Assembly: GCA_964591795.1 (NCBI GenBank)
Contig: CAZQEL010000001.1
Span: 12,189 to 76,188 of the forward strand
Reading direction: 5' to 3'
Origin: an uncultured archaeon
Lineage (GTDB): Archaea > Iainarchaeota > Iainarchaeia > Iainarchaeales > CSSED10-239
DNA: 64,000 bases
The position numbers were made by a program, and so were the translations under genes. Below, one piece after another: positions 22,185 to 29,667 of the stretch. How positions within the stretch are numbered: position 1 is the first letter of the stretch; every line of letters starts with the position of its first letter. The notes beneath the pieces are model-generated. The model was given only the letters and a program-made list of their open reading frames with translations. It was not told the origin of the DNA and made no database searches.

Positions 22185-23132
22185 TTAAACAATACACAAT
22201 GCTAAACTATAAGTATTATTTTCATCTGTTGAAATTTTTACTTTTGTAAAAAAGTTTGCTAATATCTTTTTAAATTCAGTTTTAGTATATTTATAAGAAA
22301 TCCCAACTAAAACTTGATCACCTTTTTTAAATTCAATAGTTTTATCAATATGTTTAATTAATTTATCTTTTAATACTGTGAAATACATTTCCATTCTAGA
22401 ATTTCCAAATTTCACACTATATTGAACTTCACTTTCTTTAAAACCCATAAGTAACATAGGTTGTATCCAAAAATTTATCATTGCTTTATTATAATACGCT
22501 TTAATTAAGTCTTCAGTAACAGAACTTATAATTCCATTTCCAATAAGTAAAAAATCACCTTTCTTCATACTTCTTCTAATTGCTTCTAAAATATGATTAT
22601 GATTAAAATTACCCATAGTATTTCCTAAAAATAACATTAGATGATGCTTATAATTTGGATTTCTAAAAAGAGAGGTTACATTTTCTAAATTTTCAAAATC
22701 AGAAATATTCCAATTAAATTCCAACACATCACCAATATTTAAAGCTCTAATAGTATCAGACGCAGTTTTTACCATATATGAACTTATATCAATAGGACAA
22801 TATCTAACATTAAGATGCTTTGATAGTTCACCAATAAATAAGGATGCTTTTTTACCATTTCCACAGCCAACATCAATAACATTATAGGATTTTGCTTTCA
22901 TTTTTGAAAGTACAAAATCAAGATTATTTCTAATTAAATTAACTTCTGTGTTAGTTAAATATTTTTTATATTCAGGATCTTCTTCAACATCAAGGAAATT
23001 TTGAGATTGTTTAGCAGTAAGATACCATAATTTAGAGTCAGATAAATCCCATATTCTAGTTCTTCCTTCAAGTTTATAACCCCTTTTTATAATTTCATTA
23101 AATATTATATTATTTACATTCATAATAATCAC
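22185..23132 (-). CDS. Class I SAM-dependent methyltransferase. It possibly resembles the histidine-specific (EgtD-like, Methyltransf_33) family.
   Basis: Motif I VIDVGCGNGKKASLF followed by ...YCPIDISSYMV... The family assignment is from memory of the motif spacing, not a search. Confidence 0.55.
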   Translation of the reverse strand: MIIMNVNNIIFNEIIKRGYKLEGRTRIWDLSDSKLWYLTAKQSQNFLDVEEDPEYKKYLTNTEVNLIRNNLDFVLSKMKAKSYNVIDVGCGNGKKASLFIGELSKHLNVRYCPIDISSYMVKTASDTIRALNIGDVLEFNWNISDFENLENVTSLFRNPNYKHHLMLFLGNTMGNFNHNHILEAIRRSMKKGDFLLIGNGIISSVTEDLIKAYYNKAMINFWIQPMLLMGFKESEVQYSVKFGNSRMEMYFTVLKDKLIKHIDKTIEFKKGDQVLVGISYKYTKTEFKKILANFFTKVKISTDENNTYSLALCIV

Positions 23133-23897: not shown

Positions 23898-25200
23898 TTA
23901 AAATGATAAAAAAGTAATGTTTTCAAAAGATATTTTATCTTCTTTACCTGTTTTTATATTTTTTATTGAAATAATTTTTTCTTTAATTTCATTTTCTCCT
24001 AAAAAACCAACATAGGTAATTCCTAATTTATCTGCATACTCAATATTCTTACCAATTGATCTTTTTAAAAGATCTATTGAAACATTCATACCATTCATTC
24101 TAAGTTTTTGAACAATTTTTATTGAATCTTTAATTGTGTCCCCTATAGGAATTACAAAAAGATCAGCAGTTGTTTTTTTATCCATTCCATCTCTTTTCTT
24201 AATAATTTCCATAATTGGCTCAAGACCGAATGCAACACCCACAGCAGGATAACTTTTTGAATCATCTTGTAAGTATTTACTAATCATTTCATCCCATCTA
24301 CCACCACCAGCAATTGAAGAAGACATAATTTTTTTATCTTTTAAAAATACTTCAAAAATAGGCCCTGTATAATACCCTAAACCTCTAGCAAGAGAAGGTA
24401 AAAACATATATGAAACATCATAATATTCTAAATATTTGAAAAGTTCTTGTAATGATTTGATTCCTTCAGTTTCCCCAATGGTTTTACCTATAGCTTCAAG
24501 CTTTTCTTGGTTAGTTCCTGATACTAATAGTAAATTTAACAACAAATCGATTGTTTTTTCATCAAGTCCTTTTGAATAAAGCTCGTTTTTAACCCCTTCA
24601 AAGCCTGTTTTCTTAAGCTTATCAATGGTTATTATTACTGATGTTTGTATTTCTTTATTAATTTTATAAAAATCAAGAATTTCCTCTAAAAGACGCCTAT
24701 CATTGATTTCAATATTTACTTCTAAATTAAGCTCTTTAAACACAAAATCAATTAATGAAATTATCTCTGAATCTGAAGAAACTTCCTTAACTCCAATAAT
24801 ATCTACATCACATTGATAAAATTCTCTATATCTTCCAGCCTTTATAGGCCCATCTCTAAAAACCGGACCTATTTGATATCTTTTAAATGGAAGTCTTATT
24901 TGTGGGTTTTCACCAATAAATCTTGCAAGAGCAAATGTAAATTCATACCTTAATCCTAGTGATCTTTCACCTTGGTCTTTAAATCTATATATTTCAGAAA
25001 TTGCATCTGAATTTTCTCCAGCTCCAAACTTTGCTTCTAAAATTTCTAATTTTTCAACAGTTGGTGTTTCCAAAGGAGAAAAACCATAATTTTCAAATAT
25101 ATTTTTAATTTTAAAAATAATCTTATCTCTAAGTATCTTTTCTTCAGGTGCAAAATCTCTAAATCCTTTTGCAGTTTCAAGTATCATTTTTTCAACCATA
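23898..25200 (-). CDS. hisS: Histidyl-tRNA synthetase. The start is moved to the internal Met (MVEKMILETAKGFRDF). The tracked ORF runs to 25343 and overlaps the tRNA-His gene.
   Basis: HisRS motifs: ...GFRDF..., ...LRYEFTFALARF..., ...GRYREFYQCDVDIIG..., ...GGGRWDEM... The anticodon-binding domain is at the C-terminus. Confidence 0.9.
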
Positions 25201-25285
25201 TTTTCTCTTTTCCTATATTTATTTAGTTTATAATAATATATAAAAACTAATGCTTTTTTTAAAAAATAATAATTTATAATTAAAG

Positions 25286-25358
25286 GGTCAAAACCGGGAT
25301 TCGAACCCGGGCCAGGAGCTCCACAGGCTCCTATGCTAACCACTACACTACAATGACC
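25286..25358 (-). tRNA. tRNA-His (anticodon GUG) with an encoded G-1.
   Basis: Reverse complement GGUCAUUGUAGUGUAGUGGUUAGCAUAGGAGCCUGUGGAGCUCCUGGCCCGGGUUCGAAUCCCGGUUUUGACCC. Perfect anticodon stem GGAGC/GCUCC with loop CUGUGGA. T-arm CCGGG-UUCGAAU-CCCGG. An extra 5' G pairs with C73. The acceptor stem as drawn has two U-U mismatches, which lowers confidence slightly. Confidence 0.7.
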
Positions 25359-25492: not shown

Positions 25493-25633
25493 TTAGTAAT
25501 GATGGGGAGAATTAAAAACTGGACTTAAAGTTATAGTTGACTCGTTTAAGTCATAGTTAAGTATATAGTTTTTGTTATTGAAAACTTTCTTTGAAAGAAA
25601 GAATCTTCCTCTATCATCTATTTTTGTTATCAT
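25493..25633 (-). CDS. Possible 46-aa AbrB/SpoVT-like (swapped-hairpin) small DNA-binding protein.
   Basis: Hand translation MITKIDDRGRFFLSKKVFNNKNYILNYDLNESTITLSPVFNSPHHY. The segment IDDRGRFFLSKKV resembles the xVDxxGRIxIPKxIR core of AbrB, MazE and VapB-type antitoxins. It is below the ORF-track size cut-off. Confidence 0.25.
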   Translation of the reverse strand: MITKIDDRGRFFLSKKVFNNKNYILNYDLNESTITLSPVFNSPHHY

Positions 25634-25736: not shown

Positions 25737-27002
25737 TTAAGAAGAAGGATTAACTATTCTTCCTAAAAATAAGATTTCTCCTGTTTGTTTATCTTGAATT
25801 ATAAAGATAAAAGGATGATCTGCAATAAACTCAAAAACTTCTTGTTGAGATCCTGGACCTACTGATGTCGCTATCATAGTAACTACTGTTGCAGCAGCTG
25901 CTTCAGTTCCAGATTCATCTACAGAAATAAATGATTGATGAATTACTTTAGATATCATTAATGATTCATCAAACATTTTTGAAAAATTAGCAGAATCACT
26001 AAAAGCCAAAGACATCCCTAAAGTACTTAAATTATTTGATAATGTCATTTTATCGTCAAATTCAAATTTAGGTAATGTGATTTTAGTTAAATATATATCT
26101 TTCATTTCAGATTTCCATTCATTCAATTTATCAATAGTTAATATTTCATCTAAAGTATCTAAATTTTCTTTTGGTAAAAGAATAAGCATTGAAAGATCAT
26201 TACCCAAATAGTTAAGTTCTAACATTTTAAGATAATCATTATTTAAATAATTAAATTTAGTTTTTTTAGGTAACATTACCATTGTTTCTATTTGAACTAC
26301 ATTTTCAGGAGTAATTTTAAAATCTAAATCAGTAGTATCTTTTTTATTAAATTCATAAATCCATTTACCTTTAAAATAAATTGCATTAGTTAAAATTAAT
26401 TTTGTATCTGAAGATAAATCCTCAAGTATATTTTTTATTCTATTGTTTGTTTGTTTAGCAATAAAATCATTAATTGTTAATCTTGATTTTTCAGTTTCAT
26501 TAACAAAATCTAAATTAACTGCTTTACCACCATAATATTTTTCAACATTTTGTGAATAGTTATCTAAAAGTTTTAAATCTTTTGAAACCCACAAAGCATT
26601 TCCTGTTCTAATTTCATAATTTTTATTTTTAGTATTTAATTTATTATATATAACAGCAGAATTAGGTCTTAAAATATTATTTTCTGGAAAATAAAATACA
26701 TTTTTCATTTCCTCTGCAGTAGCTCCATTTGCACCTTCATAAGTCATTGCAAGCGCACTATAAATACTATATGGTGAAAAAAATAAATTTTCAGTATTTG
26801 TTTTACTTAAATCAAAATATAAATCCATTGCAAATTGATTATTAGCATTAACAACTTCTTGTATTCCTTCTAAACTAAATCCAGTATCATCTGCACTAGG
26901 TGGACTTAAAGGATCATATGGAAATACAAATAATGCAACACCTGCAGATACAATACCAACAAATAAAATAACTAATATAATTGATAACCATTTTTTACTC
27001 AT
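25737..27002 (-). CDS. Membrane-anchored serpin (serine protease inhibitor), copy 1.
   Basis: N-terminal TM anchor. Serpin hinge and RCL ...VDESGTEAAAATVVTMIATSVGPGSQQEV... and C-terminal signature FIADHPFIFIIQDKQTGEILFLGRIVNP. Confidence 0.85.
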   Translation of the reverse strand: MSKKWLSIILVILFVGIVSAGVALFVFPYDPLSPPSADDTGFSLEGIQEVVNANNQFAMDLYFDLSKTNTENLFFSPYSIYSALAMTYEGANGATAEEMKNVFYFPENNILRPNSAVIYNKLNTKNKNYEIRTGNALWVSKDLKLLDNYSQNVEKYYGGKAVNLDFVNETEKSRLTINDFIAKQTNNRIKNILEDLSSDTKLILTNAIYFKGKWIYEFNKKDTTDLDFKITPENVVQIETMVMLPKKTKFNYLNNDYLKMLELNYLGNDLSMLILLPKENLDTLDEILTIDKLNEWKSEMKDIYLTKITLPKFEFDDKMTLSNNLSTLGMSLAFSDSANFSKMFDESLMISKVIHQSFISVDESGTEAAAATVVTMIATSVGPGSQQEVFEFIADHPFIFIIQDKQTGEILFLGRIVNPSS

Positions 27003-27032
27003 ATTTAAAAACCTCTCATATTTTAAAAAAAA

Positions 27033-28304
27033 TTAAGAAGAAGGATTAACCATTCTTCCTAAAAATAAAATTTCATTAGTTTCATTTTCTTGAATTATGA
27101 AAATAAAAGGATGATCTGCATTGAAAATAATATTAGCTACTGGATTAGGCATAGATTTAGCTATCATTATAACAGCAGTAGCTGCTGCAGCTTCTGTTCC
27201 TTTTTCATCAACTGAAACAAATGCTTGGTGAATAACTTTAGATATCATTAACCTTGTATCTCCATTCATTTTTGAAAAATCAGCAGCAGAACGTGAAAAT
27301 GCAGTAGGCATACCCATATCACTCAAATTATTCTGCAAGTAATATCTAGTATCAAATTTAAATTTAGGTAAATTTATTTTAGAAACTTCTTTTTGAGTCA
27401 TACTTTTTTTCCATTCATTTAGTTTTGCATAACTTAAAACTTTTTCTAATGAACTAACATTGTCTTTAGGTAAAAGAACTAACATTGAAAGTTCATTATC
27501 TTTATATGGTAATTCTATTATTTGAAGTAAATCATTTTCAAAATAATTAAATTTTTTATCCTCTGGAGACATAATCATAGTTGGAATTTTAATAATATTG
27601 TTAGAATTAACTTTAAAATTTAAATCCATTGTATCTTTTTTATCAAATTGATATTTCCAATCTCCTTTAAAATAAATGGCATTTGTTAAAACTAATTTTG
27701 TATCATCTGTAAGATCATTTTGTTCTAAAAGATCGTTTATTTTATTATCTGTTTGCTGAAAAATAAAATCATTAATTGTAAGTCTTGATTTTTCAAGTTC
27801 ATTAATAAAATCTAAATTAACTGCTTTACCACCATAATATTTTTCAATTAAATTAAAATATTCTGGTAAAAAAGAAAATTCTTTTTGAGCCCATAAAGCA
27901 TTTCCTGTTCTTAATTCATAAGATTTTTCTTTTTTATTTATTATATTATATATAGCAGCAGAATTAGGTCTTAAAATATTGTTTTCTGGAAAATAAAATA
28001 CATTTTTCATTTCCTCTGCAGTAGCTCCATTTGCACCTTCATAAGTCATTGCAAGCGCACTATAAATACTATATGGTGAAAAAAATAAATTTTCAGTATT
28101 TGTTTTACTTAAATCAAAATACATATCCATTGCAAATTGATTATTTGCATTTGAAACTTCTTGGATACCTTCTAAAGTATACCCACTATCATTTACTTCT
28201 GGTGGACTTACAGGATCATATGGAAAAACAAATAATGCAATACCTGCACTTACAATTCCAATAAATACAAAAACAAATAAAATTGACAACCATTTTTTAT
28301 TCAT
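27033..28304 (-). CDS. Membrane-anchored serpin, copy 2. A tandem paralogue of copy 1.
   Basis: Near-identical N-terminal half to copy 1. Hinge ...VDEKGTEAAAATAVIMIAKSMPNPVANII... and signature FNADHPFIFIIQENETNEILFLGRMVNP. The 3' ends and flanks are near-identical at the DNA level (attaagaagaaggattaac...). Confidence 0.85.
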   Translation of the reverse strand: MNKKWLSILFVFVFIGIVSAGIALFVFPYDPVSPPEVNDSGYTLEGIQEVSNANNQFAMDMYFDLSKTNTENLFFSPYSIYSALAMTYEGANGATAEEMKNVFYFPENNILRPNSAAIYNIINKKEKSYELRTGNALWAQKEFSFLPEYFNLIEKYYGGKAVNLDFINELEKSRLTINDFIFQQTDNKINDLLEQNDLTDDTKLVLTNAIYFKGDWKYQFDKKDTMDLNFKVNSNNIIKIPTMIMSPEDKKFNYFENDLLQIIELPYKDNELSMLVLLPKDNVSSLEKVLSYAKLNEWKKSMTQKEVSKINLPKFKFDTRYYLQNNLSDMGMPTAFSRSAADFSKMNGDTRLMISKVIHQAFVSVDEKGTEAAAATAVIMIAKSMPNPVANIIFNADHPFIFIIQENETNEILFLGRMVNPSS

Positions 28305-28457: not shown

Positions 28458-28727
28458 TTATAATCTTCCTTTAAATTCTTTACCAACTTTGAATGAAACT
28501 GTTTTACTTGCAGAAATTTTCATAGCTTTTCCAGTTTGAGGATTTCTACCCATTCTAGCAGCTCTCTTCTTAACTTTGAAAGTACCAAAACCAACTAATT
28601 GTAATTTACCTTCTTTTTTAACAATTACTTTCATAGCTTCTAAAGTTGTATTAATAAACTCTTCTGCTTTTGCTTTTGAGAAATCTGTTTTTTTAACAAC
28701 AGCTTCAACTAATGTTTTTTTATTCAT
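28458..28727 (-). CDS. hup: Bacterial-type DNA-binding protein HU (HU/IHF family).
   Basis: MNKKTLVEAVVKK...GKLQLVGFGTFKVKKRAARMGRNPQTGKAMKISASKTVSFKVGKEFK aligns almost position-for-position with Bacillus HU (MNKTELINAVAE...[45 protein letters not shown]). Confidence 0.9.
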   Translation of the reverse strand: MNKKTLVEAVVKKTDFSKAKAEEFINTTLEAMKVIVKKEGKLQLVGFGTFKVKKRAARMGRNPQTGKAMKISASKTVSFKVGKEFKGRL

Positions 28728-28854
28728 TTATTCACTCCCCTTTTTTCTATAAAAAATATAGATTATTAAATTATTATATATAGTAAAGCTTTTTAAATAG
28801 ATGTGTTTTAATCCCTATTTATAGGGCATCTAAGGAGTATTTATGGAAAAATAG

Positions 28855-28928
28855 CAGATCTATTGGGATTTGAACCCAAGTTTTAGGCTCCGCAAGCCTA
28901 CGTACTATCCAGGCTATACTATAGATCT
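28855..28928 (-). tRNA. tRNA-Arg (anticodon GCG).
   Basis: Reverse complement AGAUCUAUAGUAUAGCCUGGAUAGUACGUAGGCUUGCGGAGCCUAAAACUUGGGUUCAAAUCCCAAUAGAUCUG. Perfect 7-bp acceptor stem, anticodon stem UAGGC/GCCUA with loop UUGCGGA, T-arm UUGGG-UUCAAAU-CCCAA. Confidence 0.85.
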
Positions 28929-28938
28929 TTTAAAATAA

Positions 28939-29292
28939 TTATTTTTTTCCGCCTTTACGAGAAATTGTAGAGGTTCCCCAAAAGAAAACAGATACAAGAC
29001 CAAAGCCTAAAAATAAATATCCCATCATAATAGCACTAGTTAAAAATAAATATTTATAAACTAAAAAATAAGCTAAAATACCAGTTACAATAAAAGTAAG
29101 AATATTTTTTTCTCCAAAAGCTTGAGAGGCATTTTCATAAATAAAGAAAACAATTAAAGCCATAATAATATATTTTACCCAAGGAAAAATCACCATAAAT
29201 CCAGGTACAATTAATATAGCTACAACTGAAACAATTAATATTTTTACAAGTAATGGAACTGCTCCAAAAACGCCACCTTTATTATTAAGCAT
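28939..29292 (-). CDS. Small polytopic membrane protein (117 aa, ~4 TM).
   Basis: Hydrophobic profile. Last gene of the co-directional surface-protein cluster. Confidence 0.5.
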   Translation of the reverse strand: MLNNKGGVFGAVPLLVKILIVSVVAILIVPGFMVIFPWVKYIIMALIVFFIYENASQAFGEKNILTFIVTGILAYFLVYKYLFLTSAIMMGYLFLGFGLVSVFFWGTSTISRKGGKK

Positions 29293-29295
29293 AAA

Positions 29296-29667
29296 TTATC
29301 TACCTGGAGGTTTCCCACCCATTCTTTTAACTAAATGATTTCTAGCTGCATGTTCTGTTGCTCCTGGAGTACCATGAGTATCCATTTTTTTACCCATCAT
29401 TTCTTCAGCTGAACCACCAGCACTAATAAAGAAGAAATCAACAAATATTCCAGCTACACCCACTGACAATAAAATATATAATATATATCCAGTTTTAAAA
29501 ATAGGCCAAAATAAAAAGATCATAACAATAACACCAATACTAATCATTACTAATGCAAGTGTATTATGAGTAACTCTTCTTTTGATAAAAGCTATGATTG
29601 TAAGTATTAAAAATAATTGTAAGATAAAATCAAAATCTTGAAAAAAATTTAAATATATATTTAACAT
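29296..29667 (-). CDS. Small membrane protein (123 aa, ~3 TM) with a charged C-terminal tail.
   Basis: Hydrophobic profile. 3-nt gap to the next gene. Confidence 0.5.
   Translation of the reverse strand: MLNIYLNFFQDFDFILQLFLILTIIAFIKRRVTHNTLALVMISIGVIVMIFLFWPIFKTGYILYILLSVGVAGIFVDFFFISAGGSAEEMMGKKMDTHGTPGATEHAARNHLVKRMGGKPPGR

Follow-up and report, generated by a model that had tools for sequence, protein, structure and literature searches.

Two adjacent genes of a DPANN archaeon encode serpins that share a conserved scaffold and an inhibitory hinge and differ in the reactive-centre loop (RCL) from P1 onward. Judged from their sequences, we consider it probable that both are intact, functional inhibitory paralogues, that their split is about as old as the related lineages that each retain one type at this locus, and that the two proteins, tethered to the membrane, trap two different exogenous serine proteases by suicide inhibition. 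A recent gene conversion of about 190 nt homogenised codons 54-117 of the two copies, far from the loop. The genes lie in a stretch of 64 kb that is called the window below; among named organisms, the closest matches to the archaeon by RpoB' are Iainarchaeum/Diapherotrites.

Serpin fold, hinge and reactive-centre loops

Serpin B, the upstream copy (27033..28304, minus strand, 423 aa), and serpin A, the downstream copy (25737..27002, minus strand, 421 aa), occupy exactly the positions and the strand assigned to them in the original prediction. Both open reading frames (ORFs) are intact, and both match the Pfam Serpin family PF00079 end to end (E 3.6e-113 for B, covering profile positions 2-370 of 370; E 1.5e-108 for A). 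NCBIfam holds no specific model for either. The sequence of serpin A is exactly that of a database protein, P0003, from an 84.8-kb NCBI contig; an exact-sequence query with serpin A against indexed contigs gave no match. Serpin B matched inhibitory serpins in the PDB at E 1e-79, with 170 PDB serpin sequences at E<=1e-30. The serpin signature PS00284, which covers strands s4B/s5B, reads FIADHPFIFII in A (residues 392-402) and FNADHPFIFII in B (residues 394-404). The motifs FSPYSI, LTNAIYFKGxW, VIHQ, LPKF and VDExG are found in both copies, and their columns are invariant or nearly so in a 26-sequence alignment; we take the conserved residues to be S53, S56, N186, W194, H334 and K290/E342 of the shutter and breach in alpha-1-antitrypsin numbering. 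Identity between the two copies is 68% at the protein and 77% at the DNA level (285 of 1257 aligned positions differ), where chance identity for random DNA at 25% GC is roughly 31%.

As predicted, both copies carry the hinge GTEAAAAT and the C-terminal DHPFIFIIQ. The hinge reads E-S-G-T-E-A-A-A-A-T in A and E-K-G-T-E-A-A-A-A-T in B, with Glu at P17, Gly at P15, Thr at P14, four Ala at P12-P9 and Thr at P8. There is no proline, and no charged residue stands at the small-residue positions, in line with the inhibitory consensus. In the AF2 model of serpin B (mean pLDDT 86, pTM 0.83), residues 369-381 of the hinge take the form of a strand, perhaps that of the loop-inserted state; the model is therefore silent on the native conformation.

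The RCL segment P17-P5' corresponds to 27141..27206 in B (EKGTEAAAATAVIMIAKSMPNP, minus strand, by motif counting and alignment) and to 25851..25916 in A (ESGTEAAAATVVTMIATSVGPG, minus strand, by an alignment to B that is gapless from the hinge to P1'). Both loops lie within the approximate ranges first proposed, and the loop strings quoted at that time, MIATSVGPGSQQEV in A and MIAKSMPNPVANII in B, were found. With P1 placed 17 residues past the P17 Glu, before strand s1C, the predicted P1-P1' bond is Lys383-Ser384 in B and Thr379-Ser380 in A. Lys383 of B aligns with the P1 Arg383 of chloropin, a cleavage site mapped by mass spectrometry (PMC10090351).

From P1 on, B reads Lys-Ser-Met-Pro-Asn-Pro and A reads Thr-Ser-Val-Gly-Pro-Gly, and the P' side of both loops is 2-4 residues longer than is typical of the family. 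The difference had been assigned to the P side of the loop, but P4-P2 (Met-Ile-Ala) is the same in both copies, and the divergence runs from P1 through the P' side. The wider idea of paralogues with divergent specificity loops held up, the RCL being the least similar segment of the pair (29% amino acid identity, against 68% overall). Among 122 relatives, too, no part of the protein varies more than P3 to P9', at 2.4-2.6 bits compared with a mean of 0.96. The Thr that canonical counting puts at P1 of A is an unusual residue there, and several scissile bonds are in use in some bacterial serpins, of which miropin is one; what A is specific for is therefore uncertain.

The N-terminal segment and the serpin family

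Residues 5-27 form a hydrophobic segment that is predicted to be a signal-anchor in both copies (28224..28292 in B, where the juxtamembrane sequence FPYDPVSPP follows, and 26922..26990 in A, both minus strand). After a Lys-Lys pair, residues 5-29 are an uncharged run in both copies (WLSIILVILFVGIVSAGVALFVFPY in A), and AF2 places a helix at residues 3-23 of serpin B. The run is followed by a conserved motif, LFxFPYxPxxPP; F25, P28, Y29, P34 and P35 do not vary in the 26-sequence alignment, and their entropy over the 122 family members examined is close to zero. In each of these 122, the N-terminus contains an uncharged stretch of 15 residues or more, which follows a Lys or Arg in 113 of them. 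A hydrophobic N-terminus or a lipobox was found in most homologues (80 prokaryotic genomes among the matches listed). The hydrophobic segment behind the original prediction of an N-terminal membrane anchor is thus real, but it is not unusual as had been suggested, given its presence in 122/122 relatives and a membrane-anchored class of prokaryotic serpins already on record (PMC8233489).

These features suggest that an uncleaved signal-anchor probably holds A and B at the membrane. If the segment were a cleavable Sec signal peptide instead, the serpins would be released in soluble form. The Val-Ser-Ala at residues 18-20, after a hydrophobic core of 14 residues, fits a signal-peptidase site (VSA followed by G, residues 18-21), and many prokaryotic serpins have transport peptides (PMC8233489). 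Even so, we hold release to be the less likely outcome, because the hydrophobic run extends beyond this site (GVALFVF) to 23-25 uncharged residues in total, and because the family varies at the putative cleavage positions (entropy 1.5-1.8 bits), while L24, F25, P28 and Y29, which come next, are nearly invariant and resemble a membrane-interface motif. Tethering is also suggested by relatives in methanogens, which have a lipobox in place of this segment.

We found thousands of close homologues, predicted to be anchored, in metagenome genomes of DPANN and CPR. The view that serpins are sporadic in archaea, repeated in the original prediction, agrees with published work that describes few prokaryotic serpins with enigmatic roles (PMC8233489), but it does not fit the present subfamily, which is abundant in these DPANN/CPR metagenome genomes. 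Our literature search returned no relevant paper linking serpins with DPANN or CPR. By sequence comparison, serpins A and B are members of a large family without earlier characterisation, in which a predicted N-terminal anchor and a hypervariable RCL are the norm.

Origin of the tandem and gene conversion

B and A are separated by a spacer of 30 nt (27003..27032, minus strand), in which the alignment shows an oligo-T after the stop codon of B and a Shine-Dalgarno-like AGAGGTTTTTAA, which recurs upstream of B. Upstream of the pair lies a gene for bacterial-type HU (28458..28727, minus strand; PF00216, E 4.6e-29), syntenic in close relatives only. Downstream lie tRNA-His (25285-25357) and, after it, the histidyl-tRNA synthetase gene HisRS (23898..25199, minus strand, true start near 25199). 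No credible family match was obtained for the 46-aa ORF at 25493-25633, which lies between serpin A and tRNA-His. Scans for sigma-70 promoters and intrinsic terminators, with models that are not archaeal, returned sites no commoner than in shuffled sequence.

Two metagenome contigs (L081 and L082), independently assembled from other samples, carry the order HU-B-A-HisRS at 99% identity, and the tandem is therefore real. In principle, an identical tract of about 190 nt could mislead an assembler into duplicating a single-copy gene; with the 285 differing positions between A and B and the recovery of the whole order on both independent contigs, the chance of such an artefact is negligible. In the sister population, which is 99% identical, copy A has a frameshift directly past the hydrophobic segment (samples 3300039186 and 3300039187), and for that reason copy A may be dispensable. 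The sister strain also has a cluster of polymorphisms in B, at 27650-27759, where 6 of 12 differences match A, and conversion from A was considered as its source. A metagenome scan with serpin A recovered a single contig, that of P0002, one of the orthologues described below.

The nucleotide alignment that the original prediction had called for was carried out, and the break in identity maps to a tract covering codons 54-117 (gene nt 160-349 in both copies; 27956..28145 in B and 26654..26843 in A, minus strand). Over these roughly 190 nt the copies are 98-100% identical, including an exact run of 140 nt (27982-28121 in B, 26680-26819 in A), a length reached in 0 of 20000 shuffles. The A-B dS is 0.04 within the tract and 0.52 elsewhere, while orthologue pairs in the same tract have a dS of 0.49-0.59; the grouping of A with B has a bootstrap of 100% within the tract and 0% outside. 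The low dS identifies the tract as a gene-conversion patch. Conversion outside the RCL, one of the mechanisms originally offered, has thus acted, but on this tract only and not on everything outside the loop. The near-identity claimed for the 5' halves and 3' flanks was overstated, since the 5' halves are 85% and the 3' halves 70% identical, and the shared 3' flank consists of the stop codon and an oligo-T only.

Two other lineages have single-copy serpins, P0002 and P0004, at the same HU-serpin-HisRS locus. In a tree built outside codons 51-120, A grouped with P0004 (100% bootstrap) and B with P0002 (90%), while A and B grouped together in 0%. Outside the converted tract, dS was 0.52 for A-B, 0.37 for A-P0004 and 0.52 for B-P0002. 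The flanking HisRS has a dS of 0.49 against the P0004 lineage and 0.76 against the P0002 lineage, so that the serpin values rank alike. P0002 and P0004 were also considered as unequal-crossover chimeras of tandem copies and were rejected as such, P0002 being uniformly B-like and P0004 uniformly A-like along its length.

These data contradict the recent duplication put forward in the original prediction, in which the copies would have arisen in situ, the loop would have diverged fast and the similarity elsewhere would be retained ancestry. The two genes are indeed neighbours in one orientation, with 30 nt between them and a common ribosome-binding-like leader, and the RCL is their least similar part. 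However, the duplication is not recent, because the copies share only 68% of their protein and 77% of their DNA sequence (70% in the 3' half), and because six of the eight hinge codons have changed synonymously with the amino acids kept; the dS of 0.52 outside the tract and the grouping of each copy with a different lineage, A+B never being recovered, leave a recent origin very improbable. It is less improbable, though still unlikely, that the A and B types are divergent alleles of one orthologous locus and that the second type was gained laterally from a relative, by recombination at HU-HisRS followed by conversion. Each related lineage has just one of the two types at the locus, where neither chimeras nor traces of a further copy were seen, and the family is clearly mobile, between domains too. 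Against such a capture stands the parallel ranking of serpin and HisRS dS, which vertical co-divergence of both copies predicts, even if three lineages make this a weak test. We thus prefer an old split of A and B, about the age of the lineages that kept one type each.

Putative targets and known systems

We propose that each serpin would leave the cell via Sec and be retained on the outside of the cytoplasmic membrane by its uncleaved signal-anchor and a short Pro-rich linker. The RCL would be displayed as bait, and a serine protease cutting P1-P1' would be caught as an acyl-enzyme once the Ala-rich hinge enters beta-sheet A. B would target Lys/Arg-specific enzymes, either trypsin-like or basic-specific, and A would target enzymes that take a small or polar P1, such as subtilisin- or elastase-like ones. 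Because the loops differ from P1 on, the pair would cover two protease specificities. The targets would be exogenous proteases of the host or community that endanger the exposed envelope, and protection against them is plausible.

The serpins might instead regulate a secreted or surface protease of the archaeon itself, for example one that processes giant surface proteins; six giant putative surface proteins are encoded upstream of the pair. We rate this self-regulation as rather unlikely. No protease domain was detected in window ORFs of at least 120 aa (the window being only part of the genome) or next to the serpin in three other genomes, where it is surrounded by unrelated housekeeping genes. 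The linkage to HU and the surface-protein cluster, to which the original prediction had attached meaning, is limited to close relatives and was seen at 0 of 80 distant loci; across these 80 loci and the three other genomes, no conserved linkage of the serpin to HU, HisRS or a protease was found. In addition, hypervariable loops across the family are more easily reconciled with shifting external targets than with one constant target of the cell's own, and we favor defence against foreign proteases.

Among characterised prokaryotic inhibitory serpins, chloropin of Chlorobium limicola (PDB 8GXV, PMC10090351) matches B with an E of 5.6e-78. The two share the GTEAAAAT hinge, and in both the P1 residue is basic, with Ser and a P' side rich in Pro after it (R-SAMPMPV in chloropin, K-SMPNPV in B). 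Unlike A and B, chloropin comes from a bacterium, was studied in recombinant, soluble form, is accelerated by DNA or heparin, and is not described as part of a tandem. Tk-serpin, Pnserpin and aeropin are archaeal, have an Ala-rich hinge as A and B do, and inhibit enzymes of the subtilisin, chymotrypsin, trypsin or elastase type (PMC5297747, PMC8233489). They come from hyperthermophiles, show thermostabilising features and are treated in discussion as housekeeping serpins that inhibit endogenous proteases, whereas A and B belong to a low-GC DPANN archaeon, have a predicted N-terminal anchor and form a tandem with different loops.

Paired or clustered serpins are found elsewhere. Siropins 1 and 2 of Eubacterium siraeum (PMC5127057) are two active paralogues in one genome, 60-63% identical overall and 48% in their RCLs; in contrast to A and B, they are bacterial, one is predicted to be intracellular and the other extracellular, and the available part of that report describes neither a tandem nor gene conversion. 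A Methanogenium metagenome-assembled genome has three adjacent archaeal serpins (locus L051) with a membrane-tethering N-terminus, the GTEAAAAT hinge and divergent loops. They differ from A and B in having a predicted lipobox Cys (FFAGC) rather than a transmembrane helix, and they are about 43% identical to B. The mammalian clade A clusters, including mouse Serpina1 and Serpina3, combine hypervariable reactive centres with gene conversion between paralogues, as reportedly described by Hill and Hastie in 1987 and by Borriello and Krauter in 1991. These clusters resemble A and B in their tandem paralogues, conserved scaffold and hinge, accelerated divergence limited to the loop around P1 and conversion outside the loop; they differ in that they encode eukaryotic secreted plasma proteins and stem from evolutionarily unrelated events.

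Taken together, the pair follows the textbook course of serpin paralogue evolution: scaffold and hinge are conserved, the bait loop has diverged and one tract has been converted. It is notable for its occurrence in a DPANN archaeon with a reduced genome, and the pair is mainly an entry point. More tentatively, it may be one case of a broader system, in which tethered serpins of about 420 aa with the LFxFPYxPxxPP motif and a hypervariable bait loop would be exchanged horizontally between DPANN and CPR and would shield the envelope against host or community proteases, with tandem copies and conversion diversifying and maintaining the loop variants. If true, this would be a prokaryotic counterpart of the mammalian serpin clusters and would revise the view that prokaryotic serpins are scarce. 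If these inhibitors do shield the envelopes of ultra-small symbionts, the Lys-Ser and Thr-Ser loops, carried on nearly the same scaffold, could help to show which proteases such cells encounter.

Gene order and integrity of the tandem serpin locus

The GC content of the window is about 25% throughout, and its archaeal markers include split RpoB, RpoA'/A'', ribosomal proteins S7 and S12, L7Ae and an ATP-dependent DNA ligase. RpoB' finds its best named relatives in Candidatus Iainarchaeum (74%) and in MAGs of Diapherotrites or Micrarchaeota (57-60%), which places the source organism among DPANN archaea of the Iainarchaeota/Diapherotrites type.

The minus strand carries, in order, six giant ORFs, two membrane-protein ORFs, tRNA-Arg, HU, serpin B, serpin A, tRNA-His and histidyl-tRNA synthetase (HisRS). 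The six consecutive giant ORFs (29692-61867; 2111, 762, 2505, 973, 1862 and 2307 aa) gave only weak matches, to Ig-like, CarboxypepD_reg, SpaA or SdrD_B and MG3-type domains; the match of the 2307-aa ORF to the bacterial alpha-2-macroglobulin MG3 domain reached 36.5 bits, barely over the 34.9-bit cut-off. Between these and tRNA-Arg (GCG, 28854-28928, minus strand) lie two short ORFs (117 and 123 aa; 28939-29667, minus strand), which by sequence resemble multi-pass membrane proteins and have no Pfam match. HU (28458-28727, minus strand) is followed by serpin B (27033-28304, minus strand, 423 aa) and, after a spacer of 30 nt, by serpin A (25737-27002, minus strand, 421 aa). Directly upstream of HisRS is tRNA-His (GTG, 25285-25357, minus strand); the mechanical HisRS ORF (23898-25343) begins at GTG 25343 and reads through this tRNA, and the true start is near 25199 (MVEKMILETAKG). 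A histidine-specific SAM-dependent methyltransferase gene (EgtD-like, 22185-23132, minus strand; PF10017, E 2e-33) lies a few kb downstream of HisRS and adjoins AlaRS.

Two independently assembled JGI metagenome contigs, L081 and L082 (samples 3300039186 and 3300039187), match the window at 99% identity along 3.6-4.1 kb and reproduce its gene order from HU through B and A into the start of HisRS. Thus, the tandem is not an assembly artefact of a single-copy gene. In both contigs, serpin A carries a 1-nt insertion and 8 substitutions right after the hydrophobic segment (window about 26900-26919); the frame is disrupted as a result, and gene calling there yields a product of 363 aa. Judging from this lesion, serpin A may be dispensable, and perhaps decaying, in this 99%-identical sister population.

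The original prediction attached weight to the location of the serpins beside HU and the surface-protein cluster. The HU-serpin-HisRS synteny is limited to the closest relatives: neither HU nor HisRS stands beside the serpin at any of 80 distant loci, and three further serpin contexts consist of unrelated housekeeping genes. These comparisons lend no support to the proposed functional tie to the surface-protein cluster, which may nevertheless exist.

Inhibitory features and divergence of the reactive-centre loops

Both copies match Pfam Serpin end to end (serpin B, E 3.6e-113; serpin A, E 1.5e-108), as well as the solved inhibitory serpins SERPINB1, MENT and chloropin (E about 1e-79) and PROSITE signature PS00284. 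They also share FSPYSI, LTNAIYFKGxW, VIHQ, LPKF and VDExG, in columns conserved among relatives; these motifs contain the residues that correspond to the shutter, breach and s5A positions of antitrypsin. We looked for a non-inhibitory hinge and found both hinges canonical (P17 Glu, P15 Gly, P14 Thr, P13 Glu, P12-P9 Ala-Ala-Ala-Ala, P8 Thr) and free of proline and charged residues at the positions required to insert. By these sequence criteria, the two genes are predicted to be inhibitory serpin paralogues, as originally proposed.

The sequence strings quoted in the original prediction are all present, its coordinates for the reactive-centre loops (RCLs) are correct to within about 20 nt, and the loops do diverge. 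The divergence had been placed on the P side; instead, P4-P2 (Met-Ile-Ala) are the same in A and B, and the differences run from P1 onward through the P' side. Counted from the hinge, the predicted P1-P1' bond is Lys383-Ser384 in B and Thr379-Ser380 in A, the assignment of Thr379 being only positional. HMMER aligns Lys383 of serpin B with chloropin Arg383, which mass spectrometry identified as the P1 at which thrombin and KLK7 are inhibited (PMC10090351). Among bacterial serpins, some have more than one scissile bond in use, as stated in the title of the miropin paper (via PMC5127057).

AF2 models the hinge and proximal loop of serpin B (residues 369-381) as a 13-residue beta-strand, and pLDDT is below 50 over P1 and the P' region (383-393). 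What the model shows may be a loop-inserted (latent-like) rather than the native state.

An old A/B split with a recent conversion tract

A and B are 68% identical as proteins and 77% as genes (285 differences over 1257 aligned nt). The reported near-identity of their 5' halves and 3' flanks was overstated: DNA identity is 85% in the 5' half and 70% in the 3' half, the common 3' flank is a stop codon plus an oligo-T run and nothing more, and 98-100% identity is confined to about 190 nt (gene nt 160-349). The hinge has the same protein sequence in both copies, yet synonymous differences affect 6 of the 8 codons. Over codons 54-117, A and B show a synonymous divergence (dS, Nei-Gojobori) of 0.04, against 0.52 in the remainder of the gene. 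When each copy is compared with its counterpart in other lineages, these same codons give 0.49-0.59, so they are not intrinsically slow-evolving. The longest exact A/B run is 140 nt; when the variable sites were shuffled 20000 times, no run was longer than 57 nt.

Two related metagenome lineages have one serpin each at this locus: L083, with HU, serpin (P0002) and HisRS present, and the shorter contig L085, where only serpin (P0004) and HisRS were identified. Outside residues 51-120, A grouped with P0004 in 100% and B with P0002 in 90% of 300 bootstraps, and A never with B; inside, A and B grouped in 100%. Together with the hinge codons and dS, these groupings argue strongly against the recent duplication first suggested. 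The sequences indicate that the A and B lineages split about as long ago as the organisms of the window, L083 and L085, and that a later, recent conversion copied about 190 nt between the two genes. Gene conversion outside the RCL, the other option raised, therefore holds for this tract; the rest of the gene outside the RCL was not homogenised.

How the two lineages came to stand side by side has two candidate explanations. An old duplication followed by reciprocal loss is slightly favoured, since the serpin dS values rank in parallel with those of HisRS (window vs L085, 0.49; window vs L083, 0.76). The less favoured alternative is that one lineage captured the other's allele laterally, as the evident mobility of the serpin family would allow.

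Of the 38 differences that separate the window from L081/L082, 12 fall within 110 nt of serpin B (27650-27759, residues about 182-219), and 6 of these 12 agree with the serpin A sequence. This segment may be another, partial tract produced by conversion or recombination.

Probable membrane anchoring and the wider serpin family

Both N-termini consist of Met-x-Lys-Lys, a 25-residue uncharged run and FPYDP(L/V)SPP. The AF2 model of serpin B has a helix at 3-23, a linker modelled with confidence from roughly residue 31 on, and helix A starting at 44. The candidate signal-peptidase site, VSA|G, falls in variable columns, whereas Leu24, Phe25, Pro28, Tyr29, Pro31, Pro34 and Pro35 downstream are almost invariant among 122 relatives, and methanogen relatives have a lipobox in place of the hydrophobic anchor. 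We therefore regard cleavage as less likely, and an uncleaved signal-anchor holding the serpin body close to the membrane as the probable arrangement.

Such anchoring had been thought unusual. A search with serpin B returned at least 8000 homologues, of which the best 120 (about 420 aa, 55-69% identity) all have a hydrophobic N-terminus and 118 match the hinge pattern. P3 to P9' is the most variable stretch of the protein (2.4-2.6 bits vs a mean of 0.96; 122 sequences), and the positional P1 is Thr in 40, Ser in 23, Lys in 22, Gly in 16 and Ala in 7 of these sequences. Relatives occur in at least 590 species-representative genomes. The best 80 of these include DPANN (Woesearchaeota, Nanoarchaeota, Nanohaloarchaeota, Iainarchaeum, Micrarchaeota, Altiarchaeota), CPR (Shapirobacteria, Saccharibacteria, Paceibacterota, Jorgensenbacteria, Portnoybacteria), methanogens, Planctomycetes and Acidobacteria, and most of their serpins have a hydrophobic N-terminus or lipobox. 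Across this survey, an N-terminal anchor and a divergent loop are the rule in the family and do not set the A/B pair apart. A published overview has already listed a membrane-anchored class of prokaryotic serpins, yet calls serpins scarce in prokaryotes as a whole (PMC8233489). In the paper library searched, we found nothing relevant on serpins in DPANN or Woesearchaeota, and none of the papers listed by a wider search that took in CPR and four further DPANN/CPR names mentions serpins.

Full-length serpins 55-58% identical to A/B occur in three CPR/Patescibacteria MAGs (L002, L003 and L004) and resemble A/B, including the N-terminal anchor and juxtamembrane LFxFPYxPxxPP. On its contig of 110 kb, the L004 serpin has truly bacterial neighbours (trigger factor, IF-3, PheRS alpha). 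These observations point to serpin transfer between domains among ultra-small organisms.

Tandem copies are uncommon, at 2 of the best 80 loci: one Bacillota pair and one Methanogenium triplet (L051 4421-8838). Like A/B, the triplet combines tandem serpins and an identical GTEAAAAT hinge with different loops, three in number; unlike A/B, it has lipoprotein-type N-termini (FFAGC). Among archaea, the triplet exemplifies this pattern independently of A/B.

Each serpin is probably exported and membrane-tethered, and would work as a suicide-substrate trap, so that two protease specificities would be covered by the pair. Searches of the window ORFs of at least 120 aa, the six giant ORFs included, detected no protease domain. 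An endogenous protease elsewhere in the genome is a possible target, but the family-wide hypervariable bait loop, the lack of linked proteases and the presence of the family in many cell types whose envelopes are exposed together point to foreign proteases. The A/B pair is a further example of a known serpin paralogue pattern; the larger lead is an uncharacterised family of anchored serpins common to DPANN and CPR organisms.
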